Source: a virus
Lineage: Duplodnaviria > Heunggongvirae > Uroviricota > Caudoviricetes
Virus record (IMG/VR): IMGVR_UViG_3300021255_000108
Span: 1 to 64,000 of that record
Reading direction: 5' to 3' (one strand)
DNA: 64,000 nucleotides
The notes below the pieces were generated by a model. The model saw only the letters and a list, made by a program, of their open reading frames with translations. It searched no databases and was not told the origin of the DNA. This document shows positions 11,136-64,000 of the stretch, piece by piece. The position numbers and the translations under genes were made by a program. Every line of letters starts with the position of its first letter. The stretch's first letter is position 1.

Positions 11136-11600
11136 ATGGCGTATTATAATTCATATTATTCTACTGGGTATGCTAATCCATATTACGCTGCATATTAGCC
11201 AAATATGAACTAGCCATAGACTTATACTCCTGTTCAACAGCAATAGCCGCAAATGGCGAACAATAATGGTATCGTATTAATAGCCAGCGAAGGAGATGCG
11301 CAAACATATCCTGTCGCTCCTGGTAACACACAATGGATGAAAGATTAGTATAAAGATTATTTATACATTAAAACAGTTGATCCTTCTGGAATGATTATGC
11401 CTTTGCGAAAATTTAAATTAGTTGAAGAAACAAATCAAGAACAAAAACAACAGTCAACACAACCACCAGTAACATTTAATCCAGATTTATATGTTACTTG
11501 GGAAGCACTAGAACAAAGATTAGCAGAAAAATCATCTAAACCGTCTAAAACGCCTCCTGTGGCGAGAAAGGTAACTAATAATGATGTACAACAATAGTAA
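11136..11600 (+). CDS. Q/N/Y/P-rich low-complexity protein read through 6 in-frame TAG codons (about 154 aa)
   Basis: single frame from ATG 11136 to TAA 11598 with TAG at 11196, 11211, 11217, 11244, 11346 and 11595; with TAG=Q it reads ...AAYQPNMNQPQTYTPVQQQQPQMANN... and ends DVQQQ; the track ORF 11391..11597 is its C-terminal part. Confidence 0.5.
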
Positions 11601-11793
11601 TCCTATGCAACAATTATTAAATATGTACGGTAATATGAATAATTTAATGACTCAATATAATAATTGGAGCCATAACTTTAATGGAAACGCAGAACAAGAA
11701 GTGCGCAATATGTTAAATTCAGGCCAATTGTCGCAGCAACAATTTAATGCAGCCAGGCAATTGGCGCAAATGATTTTAAATAATGGACTATAA
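11581..11793 (+). CDS. N/Q-rich small protein (70 aa)
   Basis: ORF from track; low-complexity N/Q/M composition. Confidence 0.4.
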   Translation: MMYNNSNPMQQLLNMYGNMNNLMTQYNNWSHNFNGNAEQEVRNMLNSGQLSQQQFNAARQLAQMILNNGL

Positions 11794-11850
11794 ATCTAAT
11801 TATTAGATTTATATATAAAACAATTATATCAGAAAGGAAGTTATGTCCAA

Positions 11851-12612
11851 ATGGGTTTTTCTTCTAATGATGCTGGCTCAGTAGCCGATATGGCAGCAGT
11901 TATGGGCAATCACAATAATGGTGGTTTGTTCGGCGGAGATAATTCCGGATGGGGCTTAATTCTCTTCTTAATTATCATCCTTGGATGGGGTAATGGTAAT
12001 TGGGGCTACAACAATGGTGGCAATAATGGTGGAGCAACTTATGTTGTTAATGATGTACAACGTGGGTTTGATCAAAGCGCCATTATGAACGGCATATCTG
12101 GATTATCTACTGGTCTAGCTAATGCTGAAATTTCCCGTTGTAACCAACAGGCCAACATTCTTCAAGCTATGAATAGTGGCCTTATGGGAGTTACTAATCA
12201 ATTAAATACTATGGCAATGACAAACCAATAGTGTTGCTGTGATAATCGTGCGGCTATTGCCGATCTGCGTTATAATGTAGCAACAGAAGCGTGCGCCGAT
12301 CGTTCTGCGATCGATAATGCATTACGTGATGTTCTTGCTGCAAATAATGCTAGCACACAGCGCATTCTTGATCAGATGTGTCAAGATAAACTTGATGCAA
12401 AAGATGAAATCATTGCTAACCTCCGTACACAATTGAATATGTTGAATTTACAACAGAGTCAGAGTGCACAGACTGCTCAAATCTTAGCAGACAATGCTCG
12501 TCAGACTTCAGCTTTAGAGCAATATTTAAATCCTGTTCCGATCCCTGCTTATCAGGTGGCTAATCCAAATTGTTGCGGTCGGTATAATAATAATAACTGC
12601 GGCAACTTCTGA
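11851..12612 (+). CDS. Gly/Asn-rich plus coiled-coil protein read through one TAG (about 253 aa)
   Basis: track ORFs 11851..12231 and 12376..12612 are in the same frame, joined across TAG 12229 with no other stop (…AMTNQ-TAG-CCCDNRAAIADL…). Confidence 0.5.
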
Positions 12613-12627
12613 TTGGAGGTATGCTAA

Positions 12628-13107
12628 ATGGTTGAACATACCAACAATGCGTTACAAACAGTTAATCCTGGTGAAACTGTAATTTTTACCGCATCATCCA
12701 ATCCTTGCCGCAGAGGGTTTGTTCGTCATCGCGACGATACTGGTAATTTTCTTTTAAGTGGATATATACCTTCTGCTTATGGATGTCCTTGTTGCAATAA
12801 TTGTAATCGTTCTGCTGTATATCTATGTGAGTTCGGAGCGAATATAGCTATTCCAGAAGGCGGAACAGTTGGTCCCATTTCTTTAGCATTTGCTATTGAT
12901 GGTACTACAATTCCAGCATCTACTATGACTGTTACACCAGCCGCGGTTGAGGAATTTTTTAATGTTGGCAGAGCTACTAATATTGATATTTGGAATGGTT
13001 GCTGTCAGACTGTAAGTGTGCGCAATATTTCCGATCAACCAATTTTAGTATAGAATGCTAATATTCTTTTTAGCCGACCAGATTTATTAGTAAGTAGATA
13101 AGGAGGG
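12628..13107 (+). CDS. hypothetical protein with a C-terminal extension through TAG 13051 (about 159 aa)
   Basis: frame continues 17 codons past the TAG to a TAA at 13105, just before the next start at 13108. Confidence 0.4.
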
Positions 13108-13904: not shown

Positions 13905-14711
13905 ATGGTAGTTAAAGTAAATAATATAACATTAACTTCAATTGCACAAAATTGGTATCCTGGTGTAGTAACACCAGGAGACACAGAAAGTCATCATTTT
14001 ATATATAGGCAATCAACTGGGCCGTTTTCTATGAATATATCCTTTTCTGGGTGTGATAATAACGATATGATTTATTTAAATGGTGCTTCTCAATTCTATG
14101 ATACTTAGTACCAATCATATCGGTACATATGTTTAAGTCGTTAGCACTCTACACAGGTTAGTAGTTCAGCGGATAGTACATTATATATACCAATTCCTGC
14201 ATCTGGCACCAAAACATTTAAAGTATACGCTGGGGCTGGAATATATGTTAATAATGTTTATTGTTTATTTGATTGGCAACCAAACTCTCACGGCCCTTTA
14301 GTCGCTAAAGGTGAGAAGATTACAGCTAGTAAAATGAATGCTTTAAAAAATTATGTATTAACTTCAATAAAATGGACAATGTGGAAGAGAAACGTAAATG
14401 CGCCAGCACTGTCTGTTTTTTATCCTCCAGTAGGAAGTTTGATAAAATACAAACAAGATACTAATGAAAACTATTATGATTCAACAAATTTATTATTATG
14501 GGAATTAATAGCTCCGTATGATAGTGTGTTTTATTATAATTATGCTGATGAACCATTTATCGAATATACTGAAACAGATAATTTTAAGGGTAAAATAATT
14601 ACAGCAGATATTTTTAATCGTTATGATTATTATGGAAAAACTATGACATATGACAAAGTAATTATTCGTATGGATGGACACGATTATATCGGTCCAGATC
14701 ATTATGTTTAA
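13905..14711 (+). CDS. hypothetical protein, paralogue A, read through 2 TAGs (about 268 aa)
   Basis: track ORFs 13905..14108 and 14334..14711 share a frame; TAG at 14106 and 14151; shares NSHGPLVAKGEKITASKMNALKNY and YPPVGSLIKY with the next gene. Confidence 0.5.
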
Positions 14712-14720: not shown

Positions 14721-15549
14721 ATGGCACGTTCCGGTGTACTAAAAATAAACAATGTAACAATAGCAGATCCATATTATGGTAATGGATATGTTTATAATTT
14801 AACATATTCAAGTGCTAATTTACCGATAGCAGTTAAAATAACTTGGTCTGGATTCGTTCATGATTATGAAGAGGGACAAAGTAACATTATTATTGATAAT
14901 ACTGAAAAAGTTATAACAAACCCTCAATATAAAGATTATACTCATATATGGTTTAGATACGATCAATAGTCATAGACTATCGATACGTTATGGAATCAAC
15001 CTAGAATAAATATACCAATATCATCTTCTGGGTCAATAATATTAAATGTTATAATAAGAGGAAAGCTTACGATAAACTATTAGTATGTTACTTTTTCATG
15101 GCGACCAAATTCCCACGGTCCCTTAGTCGATAAAGGTGAGAAGATTACCGCTAGTAAAATGAACGATTTAAAAAATTATATATGGGATAGCAGTAAACTT
15201 AAAAATATAGACCCTTTTACAGATTATCCTCCTAGTTATGAAGTCACAACCCCCCCAATTTTTTATCCACCAGTTGGTGAATTGATTAAATATAGACATG
15301 AAAATAATAATTATATGTCTAACCCAGAACGAAAATATTTTTTAGGTGATAGTCAATTAGTACAAGTAAGATAGCGTATGGTGGAAGATTTACCATATGC
15401 TGCTAGTATTGACAGTATTGATAATTATTTTAAAAACAAAATAATTACATCAGATGATTTTAATCGTTATGATTTATATAATAAAGTAGTTAAAAGTGGT
15501 TGGAGATTTCCAGAAGCTACACACATATATGATTATAATGTCACATAAA
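14721..15549 (+). CDS. hypothetical protein, paralogue B, read through 4 TAGs (about 276 aa)
   Basis: track ORFs 14721..14969 and 15159..15374 share a frame; TAGs at 14967, 14973, 15081 and 15372; ends at TAA 15547. Confidence 0.5.
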
Positions 15550-15642: not shown

Positions 15643-17142
15643 ATGGCTACAACATTATTAAATGCTTTAAAAGAAACTACCAATTACACTCTGACAGAAA
15701 ATGGTGGAGTAACTCATAAGACTACCAATAGCGACTTGCTTGATATGTTTGCTATGGGTGCGGCAATGCGCAATAGACCAGTAGAGGATGTTATTCTTAT
15801 GTTTAAAAAGGCATATGAAGAAAATCCAGAATTGGCTATGAAGATGTTGTTTTATATCCGTGATGTGCGCGGTGGACAGGGCGAACGTAGATTTTTCAGA
15901 GAATGTATTAAATGGGCCTCAAATAACAAAGACATTCAATCCTCTATTTTAAAGAATATTCAGTATATTCCAGAATTTGGACGTTGGGATGATCTGTATT
16001 CACTTGTTGGTACCTCTTTTGAAAAAGATGTTATGCACTTTATTAAGAAACAGCTGGCATTGGATGTGCAGAGTACAACTCCATCTTTGTTAGCAAAATG
16101 GTTAAAGAGCGAAAATGCATCCAGTAAAGATAGCATAAAGCTTGGAAACATTACTCGTAAGTATCTTAATATGACACATAAGGAATACCGTAAAGTATTG
16201 GCAGAGTTACGTAAACGAATTAATATCGTTGAACGTTTGATGTCTGAAAATAGATGGAATGAAATTGAATTTGATAAAATTCCATCAAAAGCAGGATTGA
16301 TCTATAAGAACGCATTTGCGCGCAGAGATATTATTAAAGAAAAGTATAAGGCATTTGCGCAGGACGTAACATCTACTGTCAATGCTGGTACATTGTATCC
16401 ATATGAAGTCGTAGATAAAGCAATTCAGTTGTTCCGTTCCGCACGAAATATCGATTTTGATAATACAGACAGACTAATGATTAATAAATATTGGGATAAT
16501 TTAACAGATTATTTCAATGGCGCTAAATTGGACGCGTTGTGCGTTGTGGATACATCTGGGTCTATGATGGGAACGCCAATAAATGTTGCTGTATCACTGG
16601 GACTGTACTGCGCTGAGCGCAATAAAGGACCTTGGCATAATCATTATATCAGTTTCTCTTCCTATCCACAGTTGATTAAAACCGATGGAGTGGATTTTTG
16701 TGACAAAGTAAAACGTATTGTCCAGACTAACTTGTGTGAAAATACTAATATTGAAGCTACTTTTGATTTAATATTAAAGACAGCGATTGTCTCCAAAGCA
16801 AAATTACCAGAATATATTATTATTATCAGTGATATGGAGTTCGATCAGGCAACCAATTGTTGGTGGCGTAGTAATACAACTCTTATTAATAAAGGTAATG
16901 CTGAAACTGTAATGGAAGGCATTGAACGCAAATTTATCGCAGCCGGCTTACAGATGCCAAAGTTAATTTACTGGAATGTTAATGCGCGTCAAGCTAATAT
17001 TCCAATGATTGGCAATCATAGAGTAAGTTACGTATCTGGTTTTAGTCCTTCTATTTTTACAGCAATTTTGACTGGGAAAACTGGATGGGACTTAATGTTG
17101 GAAGCTATTGATAACGATCGGTACGCGTGTATTCACGCATAA
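15643..17142 (+). CDS. vWA-domain protein with an N-terminal helical domain (TROVE/DUF2828-like; possibly a Ro60-like RNA-binding protein), 499 aa
   Basis: MIDAS motif VVDTSGSM, second acidic motif IIISDMEFD; N-terminal RDVRGGQGERRFF region. Confidence 0.55.
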   Translation: MATTLLNALKETTNYTLTENGGVTHKTTNSDLLDMFAMGAAMRNRPVEDVILMFKKAYEENPELAMKMLFYIRDVRGGQGERRFFRECIKWASNNKDIQSSILKNIQYIPEFGRWDDLYSLVGTSFEKDVMHFIKKQLALDVQSTTPSLLAKWLKSENASSKDSIKLGNITRKYLNMTHKEYRKVLAELRKRINIVERLMSENRWNEIEFDKIPSKAGLIYKNAFARRDIIKEKYKAFAQDVTSTVNAGTLYPYEVVDKAIQLFRSARNIDFDNTDRLMINKYWDNLTDYFNGAKLDALCVVDTSGSMMGTPINVAVSLGLYCAERNKGPWHNHYISFSSYPQLIKTDGVDFCDKVKRIVQTNLCENTNIEATFDLILKTAIVSKAKLPEYIIIISDMEFDQATNCWWRSNTTLINKGNAETVMEGIERKFIAAGLQMPKLIYWNVNARQANIPMIGNHRVSYVSGFSPSIFTAILTGKTGWDLMLEAIDNDRYACIHA

Positions 17143-17147
17143 TTTTA

Positions 17148-17186
17148 AACGGGTTGATTATAAAATCAACCCGTTGATTTTTTTTA
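17148..17186 (+). terminator. rho-independent terminator (aaacgggttgatt-ataaa-atcaacccgtt, then T8)
   Basis: 12-bp hairpin plus a T-run. Confidence 0.75.
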
Positions 17187-17229
17187 TATTTTTTATTATA
17201 ATATATATATAAAATAAAGGAGTAAGAAT

Positions 17230-17454
17230 ATGCAAAATAATACATTTTGGTATCATGGACGCATGTTTAATATCAAAGAAACAGAAAATAAAATGGTTGA
17301 ATATGAAGGCATGGTAAAAAATTTAGAAGAACAAATTAGAGAATTAGAAGATCAACTAAAAGAAAAAGATAATTTACTCGCTTATTATAAAGATCAATTA
17401 AAAGACGCAAATGATTTACTCACTTACTATATTGACAAAAGTAAAAATTTTTAG
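17230..17454 (+). CDS. coiled-coil protein (74 aa)
   Basis: heptad E/K/L pattern; RBS aaggag. Confidence 0.4.
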   Translation: MQNNTFWYHGRMFNIKETENKMVEYEGMVKNLEEQIRELEDQLKEKDNLLAYYKDQLKDANDLLTYYIDKSKNF

Positions 17455-17622
17455 TATAATATTTTGTGGAACAAAAATAAAAAGGAGAACACTTATGCCA
17501 ACAGAAGTTAAGATTATGATGCTTGAAAATCGTAAGAAACTTATTATGACAAGAGATCCTGCGGCTAATATTAATATTGCCAGTAAAATTGATAGAAAAC
17601 TAAGAAAGTTGAGAAATGAATA

Positions 17623-18135
17623 ATGGACGCATACCTTGCTGGAAGTATTTTTTATTTGGGAGATAAATTCCGCAATGAATACTTTTGTAAAAAATTGCGT
17701 GAAGCTTTTCCCGATCTAAATGTATATAACCCTCTTGAAAACACTGAGATAAATGATAAAACAAAATTTGCCGATAGTATGGCTATTGCGGATGGAGATA
17801 ATGCCCGATTAAACAAAGCTGATATCCTAATTGCTTGTATTGATGGTGATGTTCTTCCGTCTGGTACTTGCGCGGAAATTGGTAAATTCCACGAAAAAAT
17901 TGCCAGAGGAGAGCATAAATATCTTGTCGGCATTTGTACAGATACTCGTCAAATGTATTTGACGCATAGTGCTGATAAAAACTGGGCTGGTGCTGCTTCT
18001 CCTGGTGAATGTCAATATTGTTATGAAAATCTTTATGTAACCGGTCTTATTAAACAAGGTGGTATATTGGTAACAAATATTGATGAAGCTATAAAACACA
18101 TTAGAGTATGGATAAACGGAGATGAAACTAATTGA
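17623..18135 (+). CDS. nucleoside 2-deoxyribosyltransferase-like protein (170 aa)
   Basis: N-terminal MDAYLAGSIFY...; size and pattern consistent with the NDT/Rcl family. Confidence 0.45.
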   Translation: MDAYLAGSIFYLGDKFRNEYFCKKLREAFPDLNVYNPLENTEINDKTKFADSMAIADGDNARLNKADILIACIDGDVLPSGTCAEIGKFHEKIARGEHKYLVGICTDTRQMYLTHSADKNWAGAASPGECQYCYENLYVTGLIKQGGILVTNIDEAIKHIRVWINGDETN

Positions 18136-19403
18136 ACTATGGAATTAATGAAAAGCCAAGAAATTGGCGAGACGCAGTTGGATATACCGCCTAGTTTGTA
18201 TTCGCAGTTCTTACAGCAACTATCCTCATTGCTACAATCTGCGGGACGCCGGTTGCGGCCGGACTTGTGGCAGCAGGCATTTCAACTGTGTTCTTCCTAT
18301 TGCTTACCGGATTCAAAGCCCCCATCGTTATCTCCAATTCAGGAGCAACTGTTGCGGCAGTCGTGGGCGCAATCGCCCTTGCGGGTCCGGTGTATGAAAA
18401 TTATACTGGGGTGTTACTTGGCGGGTGCGTTATCGCATGTATCTACGGAATCGCTTCTTTCTTTATTAAAAAATTCGGAACAAGATGGCTGACTAAACTA
18501 ATTCCTCCAATAGTAAGCGGTACTACTATTATGGTAATTGGAGCCAATCTTGCTAATTTTATTCCAACTTACGCTCAAGTAGGAGGACAATATTCATTAT
18601 GGGGAATTTTAGTCGCCATAATTACTGCTATAACAGTAGCTTTATGCGCAAGATACGGCAAGGGCATCATCAAAACTTTACCATTCTTAATTGGCTTGCT
18701 TGTAGGATATGTCGCATCTTTCATTCTGACTTTGTGCGGAATCCCACTTGTAGATATTTCACAGCTCTCGTGGCACGGACTATTGGCATTTCCAGACTTC
18801 GCGTTTTTACATATAAACTTTTCCACATTTAATTGGTCCACTTTACCACAGATTGTGTTATCTTTTGGTTTAGTAAGCCTTGCCGCAATGACTGAGCATA
18901 TTGGAGATATGACAACCGCTAGTGCTGTTGTTGGAAAGGATTTATTGAGTGAGCCTGGTTTACATCGAACTTTACTTGGTGATGGCATTGGGAGCCTTAT
19001 CGGCTGCTTTATTGGCGCTCAACCGAATACTACATATTCTGAATACACCTCTACTATGGCTGTTTCAGGTGTTTACAGTAGCTGGTTTACTTTGTCCACT
19101 GCTATCTCTCTCATCGCATTGGGATTTCTACGACCTTTTAATCAATTTATTACAGCCCTTCCTAATTGTGTATTTGCTGGAGTATCTGTGTTTGCCTATG
19201 GTTTTATTGCTCTGGCAGGATTAAGGACTTTAATTAATAGCGCTATTGATTGGTCCAATATTAAAAATCAACTTATTTTTGCCGCGATGTTTACAACAGG
19301 AATTAGTGGCATAGCAATTCAATTTGGCGCATTTAATTTAAGCGGTATTGCTTTAACTATGGTCGTCGGTGTTATTTTAAATGTAATTATAAAAGAGCTG
19401 TAA
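18132..19403 (+). CDS. uraA: uracil permease (NCS2/NAT family, UraA-like) with an in-frame TAG at 18192-18194
   Basis: GLLVGYVASF and VGKDLLSEPGLHRTLLGDGIGSLIGCFIGAQPNTTYSEYTSTMAVSGVYSSW align with E. coli UraA; conserved TM1 (FVFAVLTATILIA vs UraA FAMFGATVLVP) lies upstream of the GTG 18267 track start and is separated only by TAG; start TTG 18132 overlaps the upstream TGA. Confidence 0.6.
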
Positions 19404-19417
19404 AAAGCTCTTTTTTG
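19392..19417 (+). terminator. rho-independent terminator (aaagagc-tgtaaaa-agctcttt, then T6)
   Basis: hairpin plus a T-run after the permease gene. Confidence 0.6.
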
Positions 19418-19472
19418 ATTTTTTTCTTTTTTTTTAATATAATATATATATAAAATAAAGGGAGAAAATCAA

Positions 19473-19757
19473 ATGAAATTGTGGTTTGAAAATAGTAATC
19501 GTGAAGAAAGATTAATCGCAGATTGCGCGACTTGGTCTGAGGTTGATGAAACCATTAATGATTTTATTAAAAACTGTAATGACCGAAAAATCGCTGAAGC
19601 GATAGATAAATATGGAGAAGATTTCAAATTAGAACAAATACAAAACAATTTGTTTACACGATACTATACAAGAGTATGGGAACAAGAAGATGGTCGAACA
19701 AGGATAGATGTAGGTTCTCATTACGAATTTTTCATTTGGGAGGGTAAATATGAATAG
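19473..19757 (+). CDS. hypothetical protein (94 aa)
   Basis: promoter motif 19434-19452 and RBS agggag upstream. Confidence 0.4.
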   Translation: MKLWFENSNREERLIADCATWSEVDETINDFIKNCNDRKIAEAIDKYGEDFKLEQIQNNLFTRYYTRVWEQEDGRTRIDVGSHYEFFIWEGKYE

Positions 19758-19835
19758 TGATATATTACCAGTTTTATTTATCATTATATACATACTTATT
19801 ATAAAAATTTGGTTAGATACATAAGGAGTATAAAT

Positions 19836-21224: not shown

Positions 21225-21605
21225 AAAAGGAGTGAGCGATAATTAATACAGACGAAAGAATTGATAAGGCCACAGAAATTCTTGAGTATATTATGGAGAG
21301 CGACCCAAGAACATTTAGAAATCCAGATTGTGAAAATGCTTGGATTTTTGATAAAGTTCATACTGCTTTAATGATACTTAAATTTGGAAAAGAAGTATTT
21401 TAAGAGGTCCTAATGAATAAACACAAATTTTCTTACTATATATTTAGTATATTTACTATGTTAAATTTTTTCGCAGCAATTGATTCAGTAATTAAACCGA
21501 ATCATTATGTATGGATATTTAATGCTATTGCGTGTGCAATTTGTTTAATGGAAACAATTGAAGAATATGATGCCTATAATCGACATTTATATTGAAAGGT
21601 AAAGT

Positions 21606-21869
21606 ATGAATCGAGAACAACGTAGAGCATATGACAAAAAAGTAAAAAACGATAAACTTGCCGCAATCTGTCCAGTTTGTAAACATAAAGCAAGAATGTA
21701 TACAACCGCTCGTACCCCGACCGATATTGATTTAATGTGTGAACGTTGCGGTGCTGTTGTTTGCGCGAATACAGAAGCACATAAGTACATACCAGCTGGA
21801 ATTTATAGCAATCCAATATTATATAATCTATTGATTAAAGCCGGCATCGATAAAGAATCAAGTAATTGA
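21606..21869 (+). CDS. zinc-ribbon protein (87 aa)
   Basis: CPVCKHK...CERCG. Confidence 0.4.
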   Translation: MNREQRRAYDKKVKNDKLAAICPVCKHKARMYTTARTPTDIDLMCERCGAVVCANTEAHKYIPAGIYSNPILYNLLIKAGIDKESSN

Positions 21870-21884
21870 TTCTTTTATTTTTTT

Positions 21885-21894
21885 TTGATATAAT
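21885..21894 (+). promoter_or_regulatory. extended -10 promoter (tTGaTATAAT)
   Basis: consensus motif. Confidence 0.45.
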
Positions 21895-22062
21895 ATATAT
21901 ATCAAATGGGAGAAAAAGAAAAATGATTATTTTAATTGCGGTTTGTATTGTTTTAGCACTCGCGGTTTATGCGTGTTTAACTGTTGATCCAAGAACCATT
22001 GAAGATGATATAGATCAGATGGACTATATTAACAAATGGAAACGAGACCAGAGGTAATAAAA

Positions 22063-52491: not shown

Positions 52492-52502
52492 GGAGAATTA
52501 TA

Positions 52503-53099: not shown

Positions 53100-53141
53100 A
53101 TATGCATATAAAATATATCACGATTTAGGGGGTAAAATACA

Positions 53142-55385: not shown

Positions 55386-55922
55386 CTTACGCGATACGCA
55401 GGAATTATTTATGATGACACTGCGGCAGGCCCCGGTTTATGCCTATCATTCTATGTGCAAGGATGTAATATACATTGTGAAGGCTGTCATAATAAGCATA
55501 CTTGGGATTTTGAGGGTGGACACGAGTTCACCCCTCAAGTCCTTGATAATATAGTTAATGGATTAACCGCGCAAGGAGTAACAAGAAATTTATGTATACT
55601 TGGCGGGGAACCCCTTGATCCTCAAAATCAATTACTAACAGCACTTGTTGTTAGCACTGTGCGAGAAAAAGTACCAGCCGCGAACATTTGGGTATGGACT
55701 GGTTTTTCAATGGAGCATTTGCTTAAAAACCGCAGTTCGCATATGTCCACTATTTTAAAACAAATTGATGGTTTAGTTACAGAACCTTTTATCTTAGCGC
55801 AACGAGATATTACATTGCCAATGCGTGGTTCGCGCAATCAAAAAATTATGATATTTGACCGTAAAAATAATTTATGGTATAATTTATATAATAAAGATGA
55901 GAGGTATGAATTAAATGGCTGA
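55386..55922 (+). CDS. nrdG: anaerobic RNR activating enzyme (radical SAM)
   Basis: GIIYDDTAAGPGLCLSFYVQGCNIHCEGCHN (CxxxCxxC); the conserved N-terminus lies upstream of the GTG 55455 track start, in frame directly after the nrdD TGA, with no canonical start codon. Confidence 0.65.
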   Translation, partial: LTRYAGIIYDDTAAGPGLCLSFYVQGCNIHCEGCHNKHTWDFEGGHEFTPQVLDNIVNGLTAQGVTRNLCILGGEPLDPQNQLLTALVVSTVREKVPAANIWVWTGFSMEHLLKNRSSHMSTILKQIDGLVTEPFILAQRDITLPMRGSRNQKIMIFDRKNNLWYNLYNKDERYELNG

Positions 55923-56385
55923 ACCAATTTTTATGGAACAAAATGAATATGAAGAATATCTTAAACAATAGGAAGAACAAAAAAATTCTTCAATTGGTTC
56001 CACAACACTATACGACTTAAATAAGGCGGCAGTGCGTTCTTTAAAGAAAATGAACAATATGGAAATCAATCGGGCACTTGAAAAAGTAAAGGATTGGTAT
56101 AAAACTTTAATAGATGAAGATGGCGTGCCTCCGCAATACTTTATGTTTTTAGAAAGAGAACATAACTATTACACTTTATTTGTAGATACTAAAAACAATT
56201 TAAATTCATTAGACAGCCTAATTCGTGAATTTAAAGATTTGCTTATGAATTGGTATGCAGATAAAGATGTGCGCGCAATTGATTATGATAATTCATCTGG
56301 CGCAATTGAAGTATGGGCTATGTGGGATGGAGAACCAACTGTTGGTTATTTATTCCCTTATGATAAAGGAGTTATTGAATACTAA
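55915..56385 (+). CDS. hypothetical protein read through TAG 55969 (about 156 aa)
   Basis: ATG 55915 in frame with track ORF 56032..56385; the context reads LKQ-TAG-EEQK. Confidence 0.4.
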
Positions 56386-56652
56386 TGTACGAAGGATATT
56401 ACCGTATGGGTATAGTTAATCCCAGCACTTTTACCGTTATTAATATGGAAGCACAAGAATAGAATACAATAGAACTAAGTGGTTCTTATGTTGAACAAAT
56501 GCAACAAATAGGAAAAATAGTACACGATAAAAATATCACAAAAGTGTATGTATCTAATAAAGTTGCTATTTCTCTAAAGCGCGTTTTAAATGAATATTTA
56601 AATACTCAATATCAATATCAACCAGTAGAATTTATTTACAGAAAGGCATAAT
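56385..56652 (+). CDS. hypothetical protein with one in-frame TAG (about 88 aa)
   Basis: ATG 56385 to TAA 56650; TAG after EAQE. Confidence 0.3.
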
Positions 56653-56655
56653 CGA

Positions 56656-56892
56656 ATGAATAATTATTATCTTCTTAATGTTGTAGAAACTTATCGTGTT
56701 GACACAGTTGATGAAGCATTAGCAATGCAGGAAGCTTTTGATAACAGTACAGATTATGAGCTTGTTTCTTTTTCGTATACTACAAAAATAAATAAGAAAA
56801 CCGATGAAGAATATCAGGTTGTTAAAGCTAAAAAGGTCTTCCAGACAGAGAAAGAAATTTCAGTCCCAATTACAGTGGAGTATAACAGATGA
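56656..56892 (+). CDS. hypothetical protein (78 aa)
   Basis: ORF from track. Confidence 0.35.
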   Translation: MNNYYLLNVVETYRVDTVDEALAMQEAFDNSTDYELVSFSYTTKINKKTDEEYQVVKAKKVFQTEKEISVPITVEYNR

Positions 56893-57446
56893 ATATAGCA
56901 AAAACAAATATTTTAACAGACTTTTATTTTGAAAAAGTCAGTGAATATCCAGATGCGATTTTACCAACAAGAGGAACAAAAGATAGCGCTGGATATGATT
57001 TTTATTGCGCAAAGGACATTGTGATTCCAAACTATAGTCATATGATGAGCGCAATAACTGCTGATACTGTTTTTGGTGGCCCTCTACATTGGCAGAGTGT
57101 TGAAGCACTTGTAAGGAGTAGAGACGTAAAAACTCCTCTAATCCCAACTGGGGTTAAGTGTCATTTGCCGCAAGGATATTATTTACAACTGTCTTTGCGC
57201 AGTTCTACTCCAAATAAACATTGGCTGATTATTGCTAATCCACCTGGAATTGTTGACGCAGATTATTATAACAATCCAGATAATGAAGGACATATTTACT
57301 TTCAGGTAATTAACCTTCTACCATTTGATGTAAAAATGCCAGCCAGGACCAAATTTGGTCAAGGTATCGTCCTACCTTATGTCATCGCAGCAGATGACAA
57401 AGCAGAGAATACTCGTTTAGGAGGATTCGGTTCTACCGGAGCCTAA
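56889..57446 (+). CDS. dCTP deaminase / dUTPase superfamily protein
   Basis: PPGIVDADYYN motif typical of dCD/Dut enzymes. Confidence 0.6.
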   Translation: MNIAKTNILTDFYFEKVSEYPDAILPTRGTKDSAGYDFYCAKDIVIPNYSHMMSAITADTVFGGPLHWQSVEALVRSRDVKTPLIPTGVKCHLPQGYYLQLSLRSSTPNKHWLIIANPPGIVDADYYNNPDNEGHIYFQVINLLPFDVKMPARTKFGQGIVLPYVIAADDKAENTRLGGFGSTGA

Positions 57447-57905
57447 TGTTATTAGCATTAGATTAGGCAACCTCAACTACTGGATATTCTATTTGGGACA
57501 ATGATAAGTTAATTAAATTCGGTCATTTCACTTTTACAGATGAAGAAATACCGCATAGATTCCATAAACTATGTAAGGAAATTACAGTCTTGTGTCAGTT
57601 GTATAGAATAGATACAGTGGTAATTGAAGACATATAGATGCAAGCAGGCAATGTAGCAACTTTTTAGAAACTTGCGCAAGTCCAAGGAGCAATATTAGAA
57701 ACGGTTTTGAGTTTAAAATTAAACTATATGATTATTAAACCCAGCGAATGGCGAGCAGAGTGCCATTTCCTCAAAGGGCAGGATAAACATAGAGAAAGCC
57801 AGAAAAAAATTGCTTAGACTTGGGCTCAACAATAGTATCAAATTAGATGCACTTAGGACGAGGCTGATGCTATATGTATAGGTTACGCGACAATAAAACA
57901 AACAA
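57447..57905 (+). CDS. RuvC-like Holliday-junction resolvase read through about 6 TAGs
   Basis: one frame from ATG 57447 to TGA 57903; N-terminal MLLALD-TAG-ATSTTGYSIW and C-terminal DEADAICIGY fit the RuvC/YqgF-like pattern. Confidence 0.45.
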
Positions 57906-57933
57906 ATAATCAATTAAATTGGGAGTGATATTT

Positions 57934-58335
57934 ATGGACTGGAGTGCTTTTATTACAGAGCTATTTACGCTTGTTTTAATTCCTCTGCTTGGTGTGCTAG
58001 TAAAATATCTTGTAAGTTATATTAGCATCAAGAGTGATGAAATTCAAGCTAATAATAAAAATGTAGAATATAATAAATATATTGAAATGCTTGAAAATAC
58101 CATTACATCTGCGGTAATCGCAACAAATCAAACTTATGTTGATACCCTAAAGGCACAGGGTAAATTTGATAAGGCTGCGCAAGAAGAGGCGCTAAAGAAG
58201 ACCTATGGCGCTGTTATGGCTATTCTAACAAATGACGCAAAGAATTATCTTAATGAAATGATTGGCGATCTTCAGTTATATATTATGAATGGTATTGAAG
58301 AACGCGTAAGAGAAAATAAAACACAAAATGGATAA
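57934..58335 (+). CDS. membrane protein (1 TM) with a coiled-coil tail
   Basis: hydrophobic N-terminus ITELFTLVLIPLLGVLV; last + strand gene before the convergent terminator. Confidence 0.4.
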   Translation: MDWSAFITELFTLVLIPLLGVLVKYLVSYISIKSDEIQANNKNVEYNKYIEMLENTITSAVIATNQTYVDTLKAQGKFDKAAQEEALKKTYGAVMAILTNDAKNYLNEMIGDLQLYIMNGIEERVRENKTQNG

Positions 58336-58337: not shown

Positions 58338-58386
58338 AAAAATAAGGGCGGAAGTCAATTACGACTTCCGCCCTTTTATTTTTTTA
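58338..58386. terminator. bidirectional rho-independent terminator (A8, gggcggaagtc-aatt-acgacttccgccc, T-run)
   Basis: 11-bp GC-rich hairpin flanked by A-run and T-run, between convergent + and - gene blocks. Confidence 0.8.
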
Positions 58387-59031
58387 ATAATTTACAATAG
58401 GAATTGCGGCAATGGCTTCTTTAACCCACTCTAAGTCATCGCCACCCATATCCTTATACATTTTCCAACGTTTTTCAAAGTCCCTTTTCTCTTTGGTCGT
58501 CATACCATCTTTACGTTGATAATCTAAACAACTGCGCTCCAAGTCACTTTGTTGAACGCTTAATACACCTTTTGTAATACTATCCAAATTGGACTAAATA
58601 GATTGCTGAAATTTTTCTAATCTATTGCCCATGTCGCTACAATTATGAGTTTGAGTTTTTTGTATTAAATCTAATTTATCACTCATATCTGTAAAAGCAA
58701 TAGACACTCGTTCTTGAAAATCCGTATCTGCTTCTTTATTACTTTCCATTCTCTGTTCTAAATCAAGAATGGCACCGCTTAATCTATTTTCAACAGCAGC
58801 AGTACTATCAGCGCTAATTTTCTTAGCTAATTGTAGTTCTTTTGTCCATCGCTGTTCATACTTTGCCGCGTGCTGGTCGAATTTTTCCTCTTCTAATTTC
58901 TCCGCGCCTTTCTTATAACGACTTACGAACCAGTTCTTTATTTGGTCACGGAAGCATAATAGTAAAGGCAGTACTATATACGCTGGCCAGAAGTTTTTTA
59001 AAACTTCGGCAATCTAATTCCATATTTCCAT
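58384..59031 (-). CDS. membrane protein (N-terminal TM plus coiled coil), lysis-cassette-associated, read through 2 TAGs (about 215 aa)
   Basis: ATG at 59031 after RBS ggaggagga; TM AEVLKNFWPAYIVLPLLLCF; in frame with track ORF 58384..58587. Confidence 0.45.
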
Positions 59032-59049: not shown

Positions 59050-59367
59050 TTACCCAATAGAATCATCATCTTCTGTCGCCCTAAAGGCGCTCTGTATTTT
59101 TTGATAATTCTCTACACCAGCTTTAGCAGTATAGCCCAACCGTAATGAAACATAAGCCGTTGTTACATACATAAATATGTTCTATATATAAGTACCAAGC
59201 ATTGGTTCTTTAAATAATAAAAACAAAAGGACTAAACTTATTGCGATCCAGCTTACTATATCAAAGTAAGCTAATTTTTTACTAAACTCAATTGGCTACT
59301 GTTGCTGAGTTGAGGAGTTTGGCTAAGGCGTTCGCTTCGGCTTGGTTGCTACATTTAATTCTGACAT
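59050..59367 (-). CDS. small membrane protein (holin-like, 105 aa) read through 3 TAGs
   Basis: ATG at 59367 after RBS aaggaggag; TM WIAISLVLLFLLF; not in the track because of the TAGs. Confidence 0.4.
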
Positions 59368-59404
59368 ACCAGTCTCCTCCTTCTTTTGTTGTTTCTTCGT
59401 TTTT

Positions 59405-60673
59405 CTATAGATAAGTGCTCATCATATAACCAACTTTATTGTTCCACATAATTTTTGACCAGGCGATGTTAGTTTCTTCTAACACATCCACTTCTTGTCC
59501 AATTGCGACCTTACCAATCCGCGCACTAGCAGAACTTGGCTCTTCGCGCAAATTAACTGTAGAACCAGAAGACGCTGTTACTGTTGCTTTATATAACACT
59601 TTAATCACCTCAACGTTATTGTTGTTATTGTGTTCTAACCCCGCTGGAATGCCCCAATGCGTCCAAGAATAAGAATCCAATGGACTTGGGCCAATTACAC
59701 CCTGCTTGCTACCACGCGCATCTACAAAAGTACCATCACCAAGATAAACGCCAGTATGCTACATTTTTCCATCTCTGTAACGATATAAGCAGCATACTTT
59801 ATCTCGCGGCAATGTGTCAATTGTACCTTTTTGTTCCCAGTTTGTTTTATTCCACTAAGAAGTAGCACCAGATACCATCTATATACCAGCCTGCGCCATA
59901 CATTTGCGCACAAAACCAGCGCAGTCAAATACTTCTTTTCCTATCCACTTTTTTACAACATCATAATCAACATAATCAGGATATTGATTAGCCTATTGTT
60001 GAATTAAACCTTCTGTACATCTTTGTCCAGTAGTTCCATAAATATATCCACAGCCAATTTTAGATTTGGCATAATTTATTACAGCCTATGCTCCTGTTGA
60101 CATAATAGACACCTCCCCATAATTGCCTCGTATTTCAACACCTGGATAATAAAATAATAATATTTCTTTGTAAGTAAACCCTTCTGCGGCCATATGTTTG
60201 GCGCCATTTTGACTCATACCAACGCCGTGTCCATTGCCACTTCCGGTATCATAAGGGTCTTCTTTAGAAATTAAATAGGGACGCATCCCTCCCCACCTTT
60301 CTTGTGAAGATTTGATGCGTCCACCGTTAGAAGCTGAAAAATATGCGTTATTTATTAAGTTATTATTATAATATAAAACTTCACCTTGCGTATCTTTTAC
60401 AGCCTACAATGCATTGCTATAAGTAGTTGTTGCTTTGGAAATTCTAAAAGCCTAATCAGAAGAACTCTTATCTGTTATAAATCCTTGAGATTTCAATTTG
60501 CGCAAAGCAAAAGTGCGCGATGCCACTGCCTACGCACGACACGCTTCAAGAGATGAATTACCAATTTCCGCACCTACTACACCTGTTAAATATTCTTCAA
60601 TATCTATTTCTATTTCTTCAGCTTGATAATGTGCTATATTTTCATCTCTTGTTAATTTAACGAGGATTTTCAT
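59405..60673 (-). CDS. multidomain endolysin (SpoIID/LytB-like, NlpC/P60 endopeptidase and SH3b domains), read through at least 4 TAGs
   Basis: EEYLTGVVGAEIG and GHGVGMSQNGA (SpoIID motifs); FDCAGFVRKCMAQAGI (NlpC/P60 catalytic Cys); SH3b-like C-terminus KATVTASSGSTVNLREEPS...GQEVDV; TAGs at 60086, 59993 and 59879 all lie in one frame. Confidence 0.6.
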
Positions 60674-60694
60674 AATGTATATATCATTCCTTTA

Positions 60695-61531
60695 TTAGAG
60701 ATAAAAAACTTCAACCTCACCCGTAAATGTATCATTTGAATTTGTATATAAACACATCTAATGAGAATAATGGTCCCATATCGTATATCTCCAAGAACCA
60801 TTATACCACATTGTATTAACAGCTAAAACGTTATCACTTGTTATATCTGGGAATGTAAATAGTTTATAATAACTATTTCCAGCCGCATTAAAAGATGATA
60901 AAGATAATGATACTTGCTTCCTCTATATAGACTAAAAATTAGTTACTTGCGCAACATTGCCACCAGAAAACCTAATGTTCCAATTGTTCGTACCAGCAAA
61001 ATTCATCGGATATAATAATAATGTACCATAATTACAATTATCTCCAGATTCGCCGCCGTAGCCATCTCCGCCCCAACGGTGTGGTATCCAGACAAAATTA
61101 TACCATTGATTATTACAAGGAATACCATTCCAAGTGGTGCCACCATTAAATGAGACCGAACCAATACATCCATTAGAATATTTCACTTGGCTAATAAATG
61201 CTGCCGGATCTGCAACTGTTGTTCCATAACTTCCAACTGCTCTTGCTTGATGCCAAGACGTAAAAATTGGCCCATTAAATGTACTTCTGCCAGAAACTTC
61301 TAACGCATTAGAAGTAAAATCAGGAGTAGCAACTCCAATAGATAAACTAGTTAGCGATAAATTTTCATTCTTTGTAGCATAAATTGTTGTTGCTTCTGTT
61401 TTTGTTAAATAATCATTGAGGCGAGTGGTTAACGCATTAGCACTGACCGCCCCTCCCTACCCTTCAAGTGCCAAAATTTTAGCTATCGCTGTATCAACTT
61501 GTACTCCACTATATGTACTATTATAACCCAT
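60695..61531 (-). CDS. tail-fiber-like protein read through 4 TAGs (about 278 aa)
   Basis: ATG at 61531; includes track ORF 60932..61186 (FNGGTTWNGIPCNNQWYNF); TAA at 60695. Confidence 0.45.
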
Positions 61532-61534
61532 AGA

Positions 61535-62320
61535 TTACTCCGTCCTTTTCCATATATATACCGCAGTATAAGGCGGCATAATATTTATCGTTTGACTGTC
61601 TGTTGAAAGTGCGGGGATTGGGTGAGTGTGAGATCCACCACCACCTATTAATCCAGTACCACCAGATGGATCGCCTTGACCTCTGGCAGCAGCGGCGGCA
61701 GTATTACCCGCGGTTATCCATTGACCAGAAGAATTATTGTATAATCTAGCACCCTAATGCGTTGTTTGTGTTGCTCCATTGTAATAATATGCATTGCCTG
61801 TTGTACCAGCATTAACCCACACATTAACTAGATGCCCGTGGCTTGGCATTTCAGCAATTGTTAAAGTGTGACTTCCTGATGTACTAGAAAATGTATGATG
61901 AATATGTGAGGCTGTTTCTGCTCCACCGCTGCTACCAACAGCGTGAGTACTACTAACACCTAATAAAAACTAACCCTATATTTGTTCCCATTTACCGCCA
62001 AATTTATTTGTTGGATTCTCACTATCCATACTCATATAAATGCTTCCAACGGGATAAATTAAATCAAGAATTTGTGATTCACTTAAATTCACGAGTCTTT
62101 CCTTTCTAACCAAGAATGGATGATTATCATAAACAATTAAATCTCCATCGGTTTCTAAAACAAATCGTACCATTGGTACACCAGCTGCACCAGCTAATTT
62201 CCAAATATCACTACTAAAAACATAAGGTAAACAATACTACCAAGCGCCATTATGATACACCTTGGGTAAAACCCATTCATCATCACCCTAATAGCGCATT
62301 ACAACTCCACCTTGTAACAT
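61535..62320 (-). CDS. phage tail collar-domain fiber protein read through 5 TAGs (about 261 aa)
   Basis: PVGSIYMS...NPTNKFGGKWEQI, MPSHGH, GGGGSHTHPIP and NIMPPYTAVYIWKRTE match the collar-domain pattern; includes track ORF 61976..62173. Confidence 0.55.
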
Positions 62321-62324
62321 ACCA

Positions 62325-64000
62325 TTACCTCACATAAATCCAAATGCGGCCATTCACTTTTACATTTGTGCTGCCCCATTCTTCATAATCAGGTACCGCT
62401 GATATCGTACCAACCACAGCCTGCGGATTTTGTAAATATTCTTCTGTAGTCATTATGCTGACAGTACCATTTGGCCCAGAACAAACAAACTCACCAATCG
62501 CATTGCGCGCGGCTTCTCTGCCTTCAAATAAATATACAAGCGCACGACCGGCAACAGCAATAGGCGTTTTAGCCGTATCGGTTTCACCGATGTTAAATCC
62601 AAAGGTATCAGACACAATTTTACAACCTTTTTGTAAGCGTTGATAAGTTGGCGCCATAGTGTCATCACCAATCTCATAAACACAAGAACCAGGTTTAATA
62701 TCATTTGAGAGAGGCACTGCACGCATTTCAGCATAGTCATTCCAAACGGCGCCATATAATTTACCTCCAGCAGTAATATCTCCGTTTTGTGCCCAAGAGA
62801 ACATCGATTGAGTATTTCCAGCCTGATTATAACCATAGATTCCGCGCCCTCCAGTGGTACTATTCTATGAATACATATATATTATTCCAGCAGTACCTTG
62901 TACAACCATTTGAGATTCACCAACATTGGTTCTATTAATTGTTAATATTCCAGTCATCGTATCTCCGCTTTTAGATACTTTATCATTGGCATTAACGTTG
63001 CCCCAACTTACATCGCCGTTTGCATCACTATTTTTTATTAGCGCTTGTCCAGTTGTTCCACCGTTCGGTATACTTGCTCCCCAACTTACATCGCCATCCG
63101 CATCGCTGGCCTTTATTAACGCCTGTCCAGTAGTGCCTCCGTTCGGCACGCTAGTGCCCCACATAACATCTCTATCGGTGTTACTACGCTTCACTAAGCA
63201 TTGCCCAGTAAAACCACCAATAGGAAGTTCATAATAAGGCTCACTTAATTGGAAGAATATCTATCCTTCTGTCGGATTTTCAGGAAGGACTTCACCATAA
63301 TTGGCATTTAATGTTCCTGTTATTTTATTTGTAACTTTTAAATCATATAAAGTAACACAGCCAGTGGATGGATTAACTTTTGGATAATTCTCAGAAATTA
63401 AGGCAAATGAAGTTGTATATTTCCCATTAGCAGGTTTTGCAAACGCGCCACTATTATTACTAGACGCCGCCATAAGCGGTAATTCAATATTATGAGGGGC
63501 GTCGCTCCAATATACATACACTTTTGAATTAGCATCAGTGTCTCTATCACCTCTGCGCCAAGCACCACCAGCCGAAGTTGTATCTGGAACCCAAGTCAAT
63601 ATAAGAACTGAATGCGCAGCTAAATGCGTAGTAAATCTACTATCAGCACTATAATAAACTGGTTTAGCACCAGTTGTTTGATTATTAGCTAAAGTTAAAT
63701 TTAATGTTGCGTTGCCATCTCCATCATATGGCAAATAATAAGCAATAGTTAATCCAGCATATAGTTCACTTACTGTTGTTAAATTACCTGTCCAAGTGCC
63801 AGTTTTTGCGGTCTAGGTCCCATTTACATAATAAATGCCACTAATACCAAGCTCACGAACAGCACCTTGCGCGGTATTGGCACCAGTACCACCATGTGAG
63901 ATTGGTAGTTCACCAGTAACACCAAGAATTACTTTATTACTAGTATAAATATCAGTACCATCACTATCATTTGCTATTGAATTTTCTAAATCAACTTTTA
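62325..64000 (-). CDS. tail fibre protein with Gly-rich tandem repeats, 5' end beyond the window, read through at least 3 TAGs
   Basis: track ORFs 62325..62804, 62865..63194 and 63261..63734 share one frame separated only by TAG (62865, 63261); repeat VPNGGTTGQALIK(A/N)SDA(D/N)GDVSWG x2; further TAG at 63813. Confidence 0.55.

Follow-up and report, generated by a model that had tools for sequence, protein, structure and literature searches.

A tailed phage that probably reads TAG as glutamine encodes a suppressor tRNA with a second, glutamine-type hairpin

The code-15 gut phages (crAss-like, Lak, the Garnet/Amethyst-type of Borges et al., and phAss-1; the 'Caudoviricetes code 15 clade') read TAG as glutamine (Gln, Q). 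They carry a tRNA(CUA) within a tRNA array, concentrate TAG in lysis and structural genes, keep their early genes readable in the standard code and are presumed to infect standard-code hosts. According to Borges et al., the genes readable in the standard code are expressed first and a suppressor tRNA then permits translation of the late and lysis genes; whether host glutaminyl- or tryptophanyl-tRNA synthetase (GlnRS or TrpRS) charges such suppressor tRNAs was left as an open question. Here we analyze a 64-kb stretch of DNA, positions 1-64,000 of the IMG/VR virus record IMGVR_UViG_3300021255_000108 and part of a phage genome (hereafter the window). It appears to share the features listed above, and it encodes a 95-nt suppressor tRNA, tRNA(CUA), whose variable region folds into a second hairpin with a Gln anticodon in its loop.

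Unlike the described code-15 gut phages, the window has no near DNA match in GenBank, no gene for release factor 2 (RF2) or a synthetase, and no ribozyme downstream of the tRNA. A near-identity DNA search of GenBank phages with 24.5 kb of the window returned zero matches, and a tblastn search found its DNA polymerase to be ~39% identical to polymerases of Enterococcus phages and SPbeta-type Bacillus phages. The source is most likely an uncultivated tailed phage of a standard-code Bacillota (Clostridia-type) bacterium.

The reading of TAG

Genes were called with a simple self-trained caller that accepted TAA and TGA as the sole stops; after removal of two open reading frames (ORFs) overlapping tRNAs, 76 genes remained in the window, which has a G+C content of 35%. 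We found 63 in-frame TAG codons spread over 21 of the 76 genes. A sequence-only reading of the same DNA had counted at least 25 TAG-containing genes, which is slightly high, though the substance of that claim holds. The individual TAGs it had placed in genes for a UraA-like permease (18192), a RecJ-like protein (46823), an AAA_24/Sak4-like ATPase (41345) and, on the - strand, an endolysin (60086-88, 59993-95 and 59879-81) are all present, as are the Q-rich contexts it had quoted.

Coding density was compared under three stop sets (code 11, TAG as sense, TGA as sense). With TAG called as sense instead of stop, it was 85.3% overall (76.5% under code 11) and 92.4% in the region 58384-64000 (47.9% under code 11), and the median protein length in that region increased from 85 to 279 amino acids (aa). 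The control with TGA as sense left coding density unimproved, making TAG as sense the sole helpful alternative. Pfam matches to SpoIID, NLPC_P60, GIY-YIG, Gp10_C, Mom, RuvC and AAA_24 cross in-frame TAGs, as do alignments to PDB structures for the UraA-like permease, the SpoIID domain and the RecJ-like protein. Relatives with at least 90% identity have TAG opposite a window TAG in 45 of 49 cases, and relatives below 60% identity still give 52 TAG-TAG matches at these sites; because the positions are kept, they are not sequencing errors. Domains that cross TAGs, the gain in coding density and the TAG sites shared with relatives together bear out the earlier claim that TAG is a sense codon.

Which amino acid TAG specifies was read from homologues. 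The protein database held 976 homologues of the endolysin, the nearest of which are recoded relatives translated with TAG as Q. Because these close relatives had been called in this way, Q counts from the database are partly circular, and we therefore repeated the column test on DNA, fetching 80 viral loci and counting unambiguous non-TAG codons alone. Over nine endolysin TAG columns and 44 distinct homologues, the log-likelihood was -15.9 for Q and -26.5 for lysine (K), and two of the columns had Q in 39 of 39 and 34 of 35 homologues. As a control, the same procedure was applied to 18 other amino acids and named the right residue in 195-200 of 200 resamplings. When every window protein was compared with all loci by tblastn, 35 TAG positions were covered; the 15 columns outside the endolysin with at least three homologues each again gave Q, 13.5 nats above K, and the RuvC columns had Q in 9 of 9, 12 of 13 and 11 of 12 homologues. 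At endolysin residue 265 (59879-59881, - strand), the window has TAG where its two close relatives, at 96% and 76% identity, have TCA (Ser). Homologues most often have Ser there, and TCA and TAG differ by two base changes in a near-identical gene.

In a Codetta-style test of all 64 codons, TAG was assigned to Q, 26 nats over Lys, from 24 columns; the per-column margin was about equal to those of CAA and CAG, and the standard residue was returned for all 61 sense codons. The codons that face window TAGs in relatives below 60% identity are CAG (136), CAA (129), TAG (52), AAA (28) and AAG (26). TAG also falls on the SpoIID 'KAQAV' site and the UraA 'LQH' site, both Q in solved structures from cultured standard-code bacteria; TAG 18192 of the permease aligns to the Q of the LQH motif in E. 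coli UraA (3qe7). The RecJ-like protein, offered in the sequence-only reading as an example, stands as far as its alignment crosses the TAG; it is silent on the identity of the residue because PDB 8y30 has Gly or a gap opposite. A PDB relative of the Sak4-like protein was looked for and none was found. Glutamine had originally been proposed from Q-rich contexts, which is a weak argument alone; the assignment now rests on direct evidence, with homologue columns, the codon test and the Q sites in PDB structures in agreement. Metaproteomic detection of Gln at TAG sites has been described as an approach (PMC9523058). From these data we estimate a probability of about 90% that the phage uses genetic code 15, with TAG read as glutamine by the tRNA(CUA) and with TAA and TGA as stops.

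TAG is unevenly distributed. Per 1000 codons there are 0 TAGs in the tRNA region (15 genes, 1-11133), 9.9 in eight genes of unassigned function at 11136-15548, 1.7 in a block of 47 genes for nucleotide metabolism and replication (15643..58335, + strand) and 13.9 in six genes for lysis and tail fibres; in these six, 30% of the Gln-type codons are TAG. In the replication block 37 genes are TAG-free and 14 of the 23 TAGs lie in the GIY-YIG and RuvC genes; its TAG density differs from that of the late block with a Fisher p of 5e-12. Without TAG, the tRNA region and the large replication genes would be translatable by the host machinery unaided. This distribution fits that of the published code-15 phages, so that the recoding matches a new member of a known group. 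The 11136-15548 block is as TAG-rich as the late block and may also be expressed late.

The 76 genes end with TAA (56) or TGA (20) and none needs TAG as a stop, in line with the earlier claim that TAA and TGA end all clear genes. On the + strand, TAG stands immediately 5' of the true stop at 11595 (TAG-TAA, 11595-11600) and at 19755 (TAG-TGA, 19755-19760); these TAGs may be former stops with a backup stop or may add a C-terminal Gln. A further gene has 19 codons after its TAG (17452) that lack homologue support. TAG may occasionally terminate translation at these three places. We see an even chance that TAG has a double meaning, as a stop early or in some contexts and as Gln later, and that the partial recoding serves as a timing switch. 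The TAG-free tRNA region and replication genes would be expected in that case, as would the tandem stops and the unsupported tail, and the proposal is the same as the published model for recoded phages. No clear gene has TAG as its sole stop, and sequence cannot show timing. A double meaning is compatible with the code-15 reading and is not a true rival to it.

The suppressor tRNA and its second hairpin

The sole TAG decoder found in the window is the tRNA(CUA) at 10186-10280 (+ strand), the last gene of the tRNA array, with an encoded CCA end. The sequence-only reading had argued for TAG as sense and omitted this gene, which is key to the mechanism. The tRNA matches the Rfam tRNA model over its full length (55 bits) with a 20-nt insertion in the variable region and folds as a cloverleaf; ARAGORN labels it 'Pyl' because its anticodon is CUA. 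The acceptor and T stems have the canonical 7 and 5 base pairs (bp), and the D arm is an ordinary class I arm resembling that of the window's tRNA-Gln(UUG) (9491-9564, + strand). The first hairpin, CCGGU-CUCUAAA-ACCGU (10212..10228), starts one base after the D stem and is the decoding anticodon arm, with CUA at 10219-10221. It equals the anticodon arm of the window's tRNA-Trp(CCA) (8496-8570, + strand) except for C35->U, and its top pair, C27/U43, is mismatched, leaving a stem of 4 bp. Positions 27 and 43 are also unpaired in 12 of the 17 related two-armed tRNAs with letters at both, and an unpaired 27-43 has been reported to increase UAG read-through by CUA tRNAs (PMC13092985).

The 24-nt variable region consists of a G, the second hairpin AUAUCC-[CUCUGAC]-GGAGGU (10230..10248) and AGUU, so that the hairpin ends 4-5 bases before the T stem. 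Its pairs are, from the outside in, A-U, U.G, an A.G mismatch, U-A, C-G and C-G. The 7-nt loop, CU-CUG-AC, has the layout of an anticodon loop and contains the Gln anticodon CUG (10238-10240) as a pseudo-anticodon; it differs from the loop of the window's tRNA-Gln, CUUUGAC, solely in the wobble base. The two stems of the tRNA(CUA) are unrelated in sequence. The arm contains GGAGG; a function of the arm as a Shine-Dalgarno sequence was considered and dropped because GGAGG varies in related arms, whereas the loop is kept.

The E. coli GlnRS identity set consists of a weak 1-72 pair, G73, G2-C71, G3-C70, G10, U35 and G36, and may not be that of the host. By this set, the window tRNA(CUA) has the weak pair (U1-A72), G73, G3-C70 and G10, and has G2.U71 at the second pair. 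In 24 related tRNAs, 1-72 is unpaired in 10 and is U-A or A-U in the others, bar one C-G; many relatives have C3-G70. The combination of U35 and G36 is not found in the decoding anticodon (CUA, with A36) and is present solely in the CUG of the second-hairpin loop.

We then asked how widely such hairpins occur. IMG/VR contigs were scanned for CUA tRNAs with the window's 18-nt anticodon arm and with anticodon stems of the form GGU...ACC, and CUA tRNAs adjoining endolysin homologues were added; the family counts that follow refer to the matches listed. The set contained at least 128 unique CUA tRNAs, of which 42 have a length of 84 nt or more. True Ser-/Leu-type class II bodies are seen in about eight of these long tRNAs, and all the others among them carry the same kind of hairpin as the window tRNA. 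A hairpin of at least 2 bp and a 7-nt loop with CUG or UUG at loop positions 3-5 is found in 29 of 38 long variable regions, and none of the 38 has a CCA loop. The loops include CUCUGAA, UUCUGAG, CCCUGAA and CUUUGAA. U35 and G36 of the pseudo-anticodon are invariant and the wobble base is C or U, so that both Gln anticodons occur. Sequence changes affect the acceptor, D and T arms as well as the hairpin stem, whereas the loop is retained; the stem covaries (UCC/GGA, CUC/GAG, GCC/GGC, AGC/GCU, AUC/GAU, UACGG/CCGUA). When 3' strands were exchanged between tRNAs as a shuffled-partner control, the observed pairing was reached in 0 of 2000 trials. In a MAFFT alignment of 24 CUA tRNAs the three inner pairs are formed in 24, 22 and 21 of the sequences, with changes on both sides in 8, 6 and 1, respectively.

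Hairpins of the same design occur in two further families. Among tRNAs with anticodon UCA, putative TGA suppressors, 71 long variable regions were listed; 35 of these (44 with a looser rule) form a hairpin of 4-6 bp with the loop nU-CCA-AA, the anticodon loop of tRNA-Trp, 2 of the 71 have YUG, and the others look like tRNA-Sec. In some UCA tRNAs the two hairpins are alike, with GCGGU-CUUCAAA-ACCGU beside CGGGU-CUCCAAA-ACCCG. Of tRNAs with anticodon UAU, which read the Ile codon AUA, 30 distinct long forms were listed, and 21 of them have a hairpin of 3-5 bp, mostly 4-5, with the loop YA-GAU-NN. GAU is the main Ile anticodon. In these Ile pseudo-loops position 33 is A instead of U, so that the second hairpin would be read by a protein and is unlikely to be read by the ribosome.

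The spacing of the second hairpin is constant on one side. Taking a 5-bp pseudo stem, 3-5 nt separate it from the T stem in all three families; the distance is 4 nt in 18 of 22 Gln and 31 of 40 Trp forms and 4-5 nt in 21 of 21 Ile forms. The distance from the pseudo stem to the decoding anticodon stem varies from -1 to 7 nt. The gap to the T stem is as long as a class I variable loop, and the second hairpin therefore appears normally placed relative to the T stem; the decoding arm appears normally placed relative to the D stem. Long forms are rare among the ordinary sense tRNAs of the same loci. The bodies of two-armed CUA tRNAs are nearest to tRNA-Gln in 17 of 32 cases, and those of UCA tRNAs are nearest to tRNA-Trp in 20 of 38. 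The long-armed CUA tRNAs sought in bacterial genomes were mostly Leu-/Ser-type suppressors and chance matches, with five clear two-armed Gln-type tRNAs in contigs of metagenome-assembled genomes (MAGs) labelled Bacillota, Acutalibacteraceae, Erysipelotrichaceae, 'Mollicutes' and Nanosyncoccus. In the literature searched, which mostly did not extend to subscription journals, we found no phage suppressor tRNA described with a natural pseudo-anticodon or a second anticodon arm.

Other long tRNAs in the same material look different. CUA tRNAs with true Ser-/Leu-type class II bodies occur in twelve phage and Clostridia MAG contigs; they could be amber suppressors inserting Ser or Leu, or regulatory tRNAs. 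In six phage loci, short extra arms that end in GNRA-like tetraloops (GCAA, GAAA) are found in the variable region of many different sense tRNAs (His, Ile, Asn, Thr, Gly, Cys), a phenomenon distinct from the pseudo-anticodon arm.

GlnRS, TrpRS and isoleucyl-tRNA synthetase (IleRS) belong to class I and recognize their tRNAs in large part by the anticodon. The families that bear the hairpin are those whose decoding anticodon is non-cognate, and the hairpin may therefore supply the cognate anticodon. In the mechanism we propose, the second hairpin would present the Gln anticodon to an anticodon-dependent charging enzyme, so that a tRNA whose decoding anticodon has A36 could still be charged with Gln, either by host GlnRS or by a non-discriminating GluRS followed by the amidotransferase GatCAB. 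The fold might switch, with the second hairpin in the anticodon-arm position for charging and the first hairpin there on the ribosome; the spacing rule, with its class I gap to the T stem, fits such an exchange of positions. As in the published model for such phages, the suppressor tRNA would build up and outcompete release factor 1, and full-length late proteins would be made only from that time. The arm may thus help a synthetase to charge the tRNA(CUA). Extended to all three families, the proposal is that CUA/Gln, UCA/Trp and UAU/Ile tRNAs form a natural class of two-armed phage tRNAs in which a second hairpin with the cognate anticodon is a charging identity element, perhaps through swapped hairpins. 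We put this forward tentatively, at somewhat less than even odds.

Several points weigh against this proposal. Class I enzymes bind the tRNA face away from the variable region, and use of the arm would therefore need a rearranged fold. Of the 128 unique phage CUA tRNAs listed, 86 are without a second hairpin, and the arm is not required in general, since PMC12636597 cites short phage tRNAs(CUA) as substrates of E. coli GlnRS. The G2.U71 of the window tRNA deviates from the E. coli GlnRS identity set, and its body is not clearly Gln-like in overall similarity, the nearest bodies being Asn, Trp and Leu. The paired core of the Gln set spans only 3 bp, and the outer pairs are weak. The tRNA samples were limited to GGU...ACC anticodon stems and came mostly from IMG/VR, and the counts are of unique sequences, uncorrected for shared ancestry, and not of independent events.

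The main rival, conceivable if somewhat doubtful, is that the second hairpin has no charging role and is a relic of a duplicated anticodon arm, or that it serves stability, a modification enzyme or protection from an anticodon nuclease. The many suppressor tRNAs that lack it and the binding face of class I enzymes point this way, and the mutually similar hairpins of some UCA tRNAs hint at an origin by duplication. On this account one would not expect the loop triplet to agree with the amino acid in each of three separate families (CUG/UUG, CCA, GAU), nor the loop to be retained while the acceptor, D and T arms and the stem change. The stems of the window's two hairpins are unrelated, and the Ile pseudo-loops keep GAU despite an A33 that makes decoding unlikely.

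The anatomy of the tRNA also bears on the residue inserted. TAG could be sense for Ser, Leu, Tyr, pyrrolysine, Lys, Glu or Trp: the long extra arm resembles that of class II tRNAs, G73 is the discriminator of tRNA-Ser, the anticodon arm is a tRNA-Trp arm but for one base, Ser-type and Leu-type CUA tRNAs do exist in some other phage contigs, and Glu would be expected if a GluRS-charged tRNA stayed unamidated. We consider any of these residues very improbable. In the 64-codon test K trails Q by the margin given above, and E and S were ~35 nats behind in an earlier run of the same test. TAG occupies the invariant-Q sites SpoIID KAQAV, UraA LQH and RuvC LDQ, and relatives show CAG or CAA opposite TAG and not TCN, TTR, TAY or TGG. 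The tRNA has a class I D arm, and 4-5 unpaired bases lie between its extra arm and the T stem, which sets it apart from tRNAs for Ser, Leu and Tyr; the features of tRNA-Pyl are missing. The Ser-type identity suggested by the long arm is ruled out by the column test. Last, TAG as an ordinary stop in pseudogenes, split genes or assembly errors is refuted, for even though code 11 still yields many ORFs and leaves the replication block 90.5% coding, it fragments all the endolysin, holin-like and tail-fibre genes of a late block that is then just 47.9% coding, domains run on in frame past the TAGs, identical TAG positions recur in relatives at 96%, 76% and <60% identity, and the window encodes a tRNA with anticodon CUA.

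Gene content of the window

The window has the tRNA array at 2.6-10.3 kb, followed by a long + strand block and, from 58.4 kb, by a - strand block. A strong hairpin resembling a bidirectional intrinsic terminator (58344..58375) lies between the convergent replication (+) and late (-) blocks. Promoter scans of the window gave matches no more numerous than in shuffled sequence. No release factor, synthetase or amidotransferase gene was found among the window proteins scanned with Pfam; a gene for RF2 or a synthetase, or a second suppressor tRNA, could lie outside the 64 kb.

Upstream of the suppressor, 13 tRNAs with interspersed small TAG-free ORFs occupy 2658..9841 (+ strand; ARAGORN, Rfam); including the suppressor, the array has 14 tRNAs by ARAGORN and 16 Rfam matches. 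The anticodon stem of the tRNA-Trp(CCA) is that of the suppressor, including the C27/U43 mismatch, and so has 4 bp. A tRNA-Trp with a 4-bp anticodon stem has been reported to read UGA (PMC13092985); despite this stem, 20 window genes end with TGA, and coding density does not improve with TGA as sense. The tRNAs with the Leu anticodons UAA, CAA and UAG (7970-8045, 9684-9759 and 9766-9841, + strand) are only 76 nt each; they have a 5-nt variable loop and A73 and are missing the long arm that a bacterial tRNA-Leu has. In the 64-codon test the codons TTA, TTG and CTA nevertheless correspond to Leu in homologues, and similar short 'Leu' tRNAs are present in other phage loci. Tracts at 2380-2439, 3609-3681 and 4298-4370 (+ strand) are tRNA-like Rfam matches that ARAGORN did not call; they comprise a partial tRNA (model 6-65) whose odd 6-nt loop includes UUA, a tRNA with anticodon CAU (32.8 bits) and a match with C at position 33, in the loop CCUUCAA. 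A gene within the array (7246-7695, + strand) encodes a PTH2-type peptidyl-tRNA hydrolase, which, speculatively, could recycle peptidyl-tRNA dropped at TAGs under incomplete suppression. The array also contains a weak match to YrlA, a Y RNA-like family in Rfam (5056-5121, + strand; 29.8 bits, under the family gathering score), and a DUF2828/DUF7788 protein is encoded at 15643-17142 (+ strand), a combination that we take to recall Ro/Y-RNA modules.

Downstream of the array on the + strand, the TAG-containing genes of unassigned function encode a Q/P-rich protein (11136..11600) with six TAGs, the last directly before TAA; a Gly/Asn/Cys-rich protein (11851..12612) with one TAG (12229), Q in 4 of 5 homologues; a protein (12628..13101) with one TAG (13051), Q in 2 of 2 homologues whose alignment continues beyond it; and two adjacent paralogues (13905..14711 and 14721..15548) with two and four TAGs, which have in common the stretch SWRPNSHGPLV.KGEKITASKMN.LKNY. 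By Pfam, the replication block encodes a GyrB/GyrA-type topoisomerase, RNase H, an ATP-dependent ligase, DnaB, a primase-like protein, a RecD-like helicase, a DnaE-type polymerase (1301 aa), NrdD/NrdG, dUTPase, PhoH, ClpP and an SPFH/flotillin protein; the delimitation of the block draws on Pfam, tblastn and TAG counts.

Ten of its genes carry TAG, all on the + strand. A small coiled-coil protein (17230..17511) has its one TAG (17452) 19 codons before TAA, with no homologue covering it; the UraA-like uracil/xanthine permease (18132..19403; Pfam Xan_ur_permease) has one TAG (18192); and a small protein (19473..19760) has its TAG (19755) directly before TGA. A Mom-family protein (33398..34540) has two TAGs, both crossed by its Pfam Mom match (1.8e-38, residues 8-214). 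The GIY-YIG homing-endonuclease-like protein (38416..39396; Pfam GIY-YIG, residues 238-317) has eight, the second-highest count in the window despite its TAG-poor replication-block setting, and this mobile gene appears adapted to the phage code. The AAA_24 (Sak4-like) ATPase (41093..42070; Pfam AAA_24, 7.8e-40) has one TAG (41345), at residue 85, within a match spanning residues 19-214, and the RecJ-like exonuclease (45542..47302) has one (46823), flanked by Pfam DHH and RecJ_OB. Two unassigned proteins have one TAG each, at 55969 (55915..56385; homologue column Q 7, K 4, N 1) and 56460 (56385..56651). The RuvC-like resolvase (57446..57928; Pfam RuvC) has six, and its relatives have TAG in common at 4-9 of the same sites.

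Pfam matches in the - strand block identify a holin-like protein, the SpoIID-NlpC/P60-SH3 endolysin and tail-fibre proteins. The six genes, all with TAG, are a lysis-cassette neighbour encoding a protein with an N-terminal membrane helix (58384..59031, two TAGs), a holin-like small membrane protein (59050..59367, three), the endolysin (59288..60673, nine; Pfam, PDB and homologue columns), a tail-fibre-like protein (60695..61531, four), a tail-fibre/baseplate protein (61535..62320, five; Pfam Gp10_C, 9.6e-20, residues 84-260) and a tail-fibre protein open at the window end (62325..63998, three).

Comparison with known systems

The recoding adds one lineage, probably a Bacillota phage, to the code-15 phages. 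With TAG as Gln the genome needs translation with table 15, as otherwise its lysis and tail genes are lost. A parallel to the tRNA(CUA) is found in phAss-1 (OQ749652), which has an ordinary 72-nt tRNA(CUA) (5907-5978) and, six bases apart, a two-armed tRNA(CUA) (5985-6072); the phAss-1 paper is silent on the arm of the latter. The short phAss-1 tRNA has the acceptor 5' strand of the window tRNA, UGGGGAG, and the long one has the arm design, which suggests that parts have been exchanged between suppressor tRNAs.

Amber suppressors of E. coli offer a second comparison: supE is a tRNA-Gln with anticodon CUA, and su+7 is a tRNA-Trp with anticodon CUA that is charged with Gln. Like these, the window tRNA is an amber suppressor for Gln with a weak 1-72 pair, G73 and U35, and its su+7-like Trp arm has the change C35->U. 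supE and su+7 are tRNAs of 75-76 nt with one anticodon arm and are weak suppressors in cells where TAG stays a stop, whereas the window tRNA has a second hairpin with a Gln loop and serves 63 sense TAGs. The class II tRNAs (Ser, Leu, Tyr, Sec) and allo-tRNAs likewise have an extra stem-loop between the anticodon and T arms, which the ribosome tolerates. Their extra arm is followed by 1-2 unpaired bases before the T stem, compared with 4-5 in the two-armed tRNAs; unlike them, the window tRNA has a class I D arm, G73 and a 7-nt loop with the cognate triplet, and very probably inserts Gln. tRNA-Pyl, with its 3-nt variable loop, 6-bp anticodon stem and small D loop (PMC7609411 and general knowledge), differs from the window tRNA, whose variable region has 24 nt and whose anticodon stem has 4-5 bp, and no pyl genes were found among the window proteins scanned with Pfam. 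Suppressor tRNAs associated with theta (HDV-like) ribozymes (Kienbeck 2024, PMC10879173) are also tRNAs(CUA) of recoded gut phages; around the window tRNA Rfam gave only tRNAs and neither a theta/HDV-like ribozyme nor another RNA family, the presence of a theta model in Rfam 15 not having been checked, and the start codon of the next gene follows just 22 nt after the encoded CCA.

The second hairpin itself resembles an engineered design. Mukai 2020 (PMC7590224, section 2.6) described a pseudo-anticodon, built into the variable arm, that raised aminoacylation of an amber suppressor. As in that system, the variable arm here mimics the cognate anticodon arm and would recruit the anticodon-binding domain of the synthetase. 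The Mukai system is synthetic, with allo-tRNA scaffolds and a HisRS fused to an extra binding domain; the design in the window is natural, sits on an ordinary tRNA body and would have to work with unmodified host enzymes. The two-armed tRNA thus suggests a direct, testable answer to the question of how suppressor tRNAs are charged, and its recurrence in putative TGA->Trp suppressors and AUA-reading tRNA-Ile suggests a general rule more than an isolated case. Should the proposed role of the arm hold, the arm would represent a new type of identity element for tRNAs, one that uncouples reading from charging, and would provide genetic-code engineering with a ready-made natural version of a design so far only built by hand (PMC7590224).

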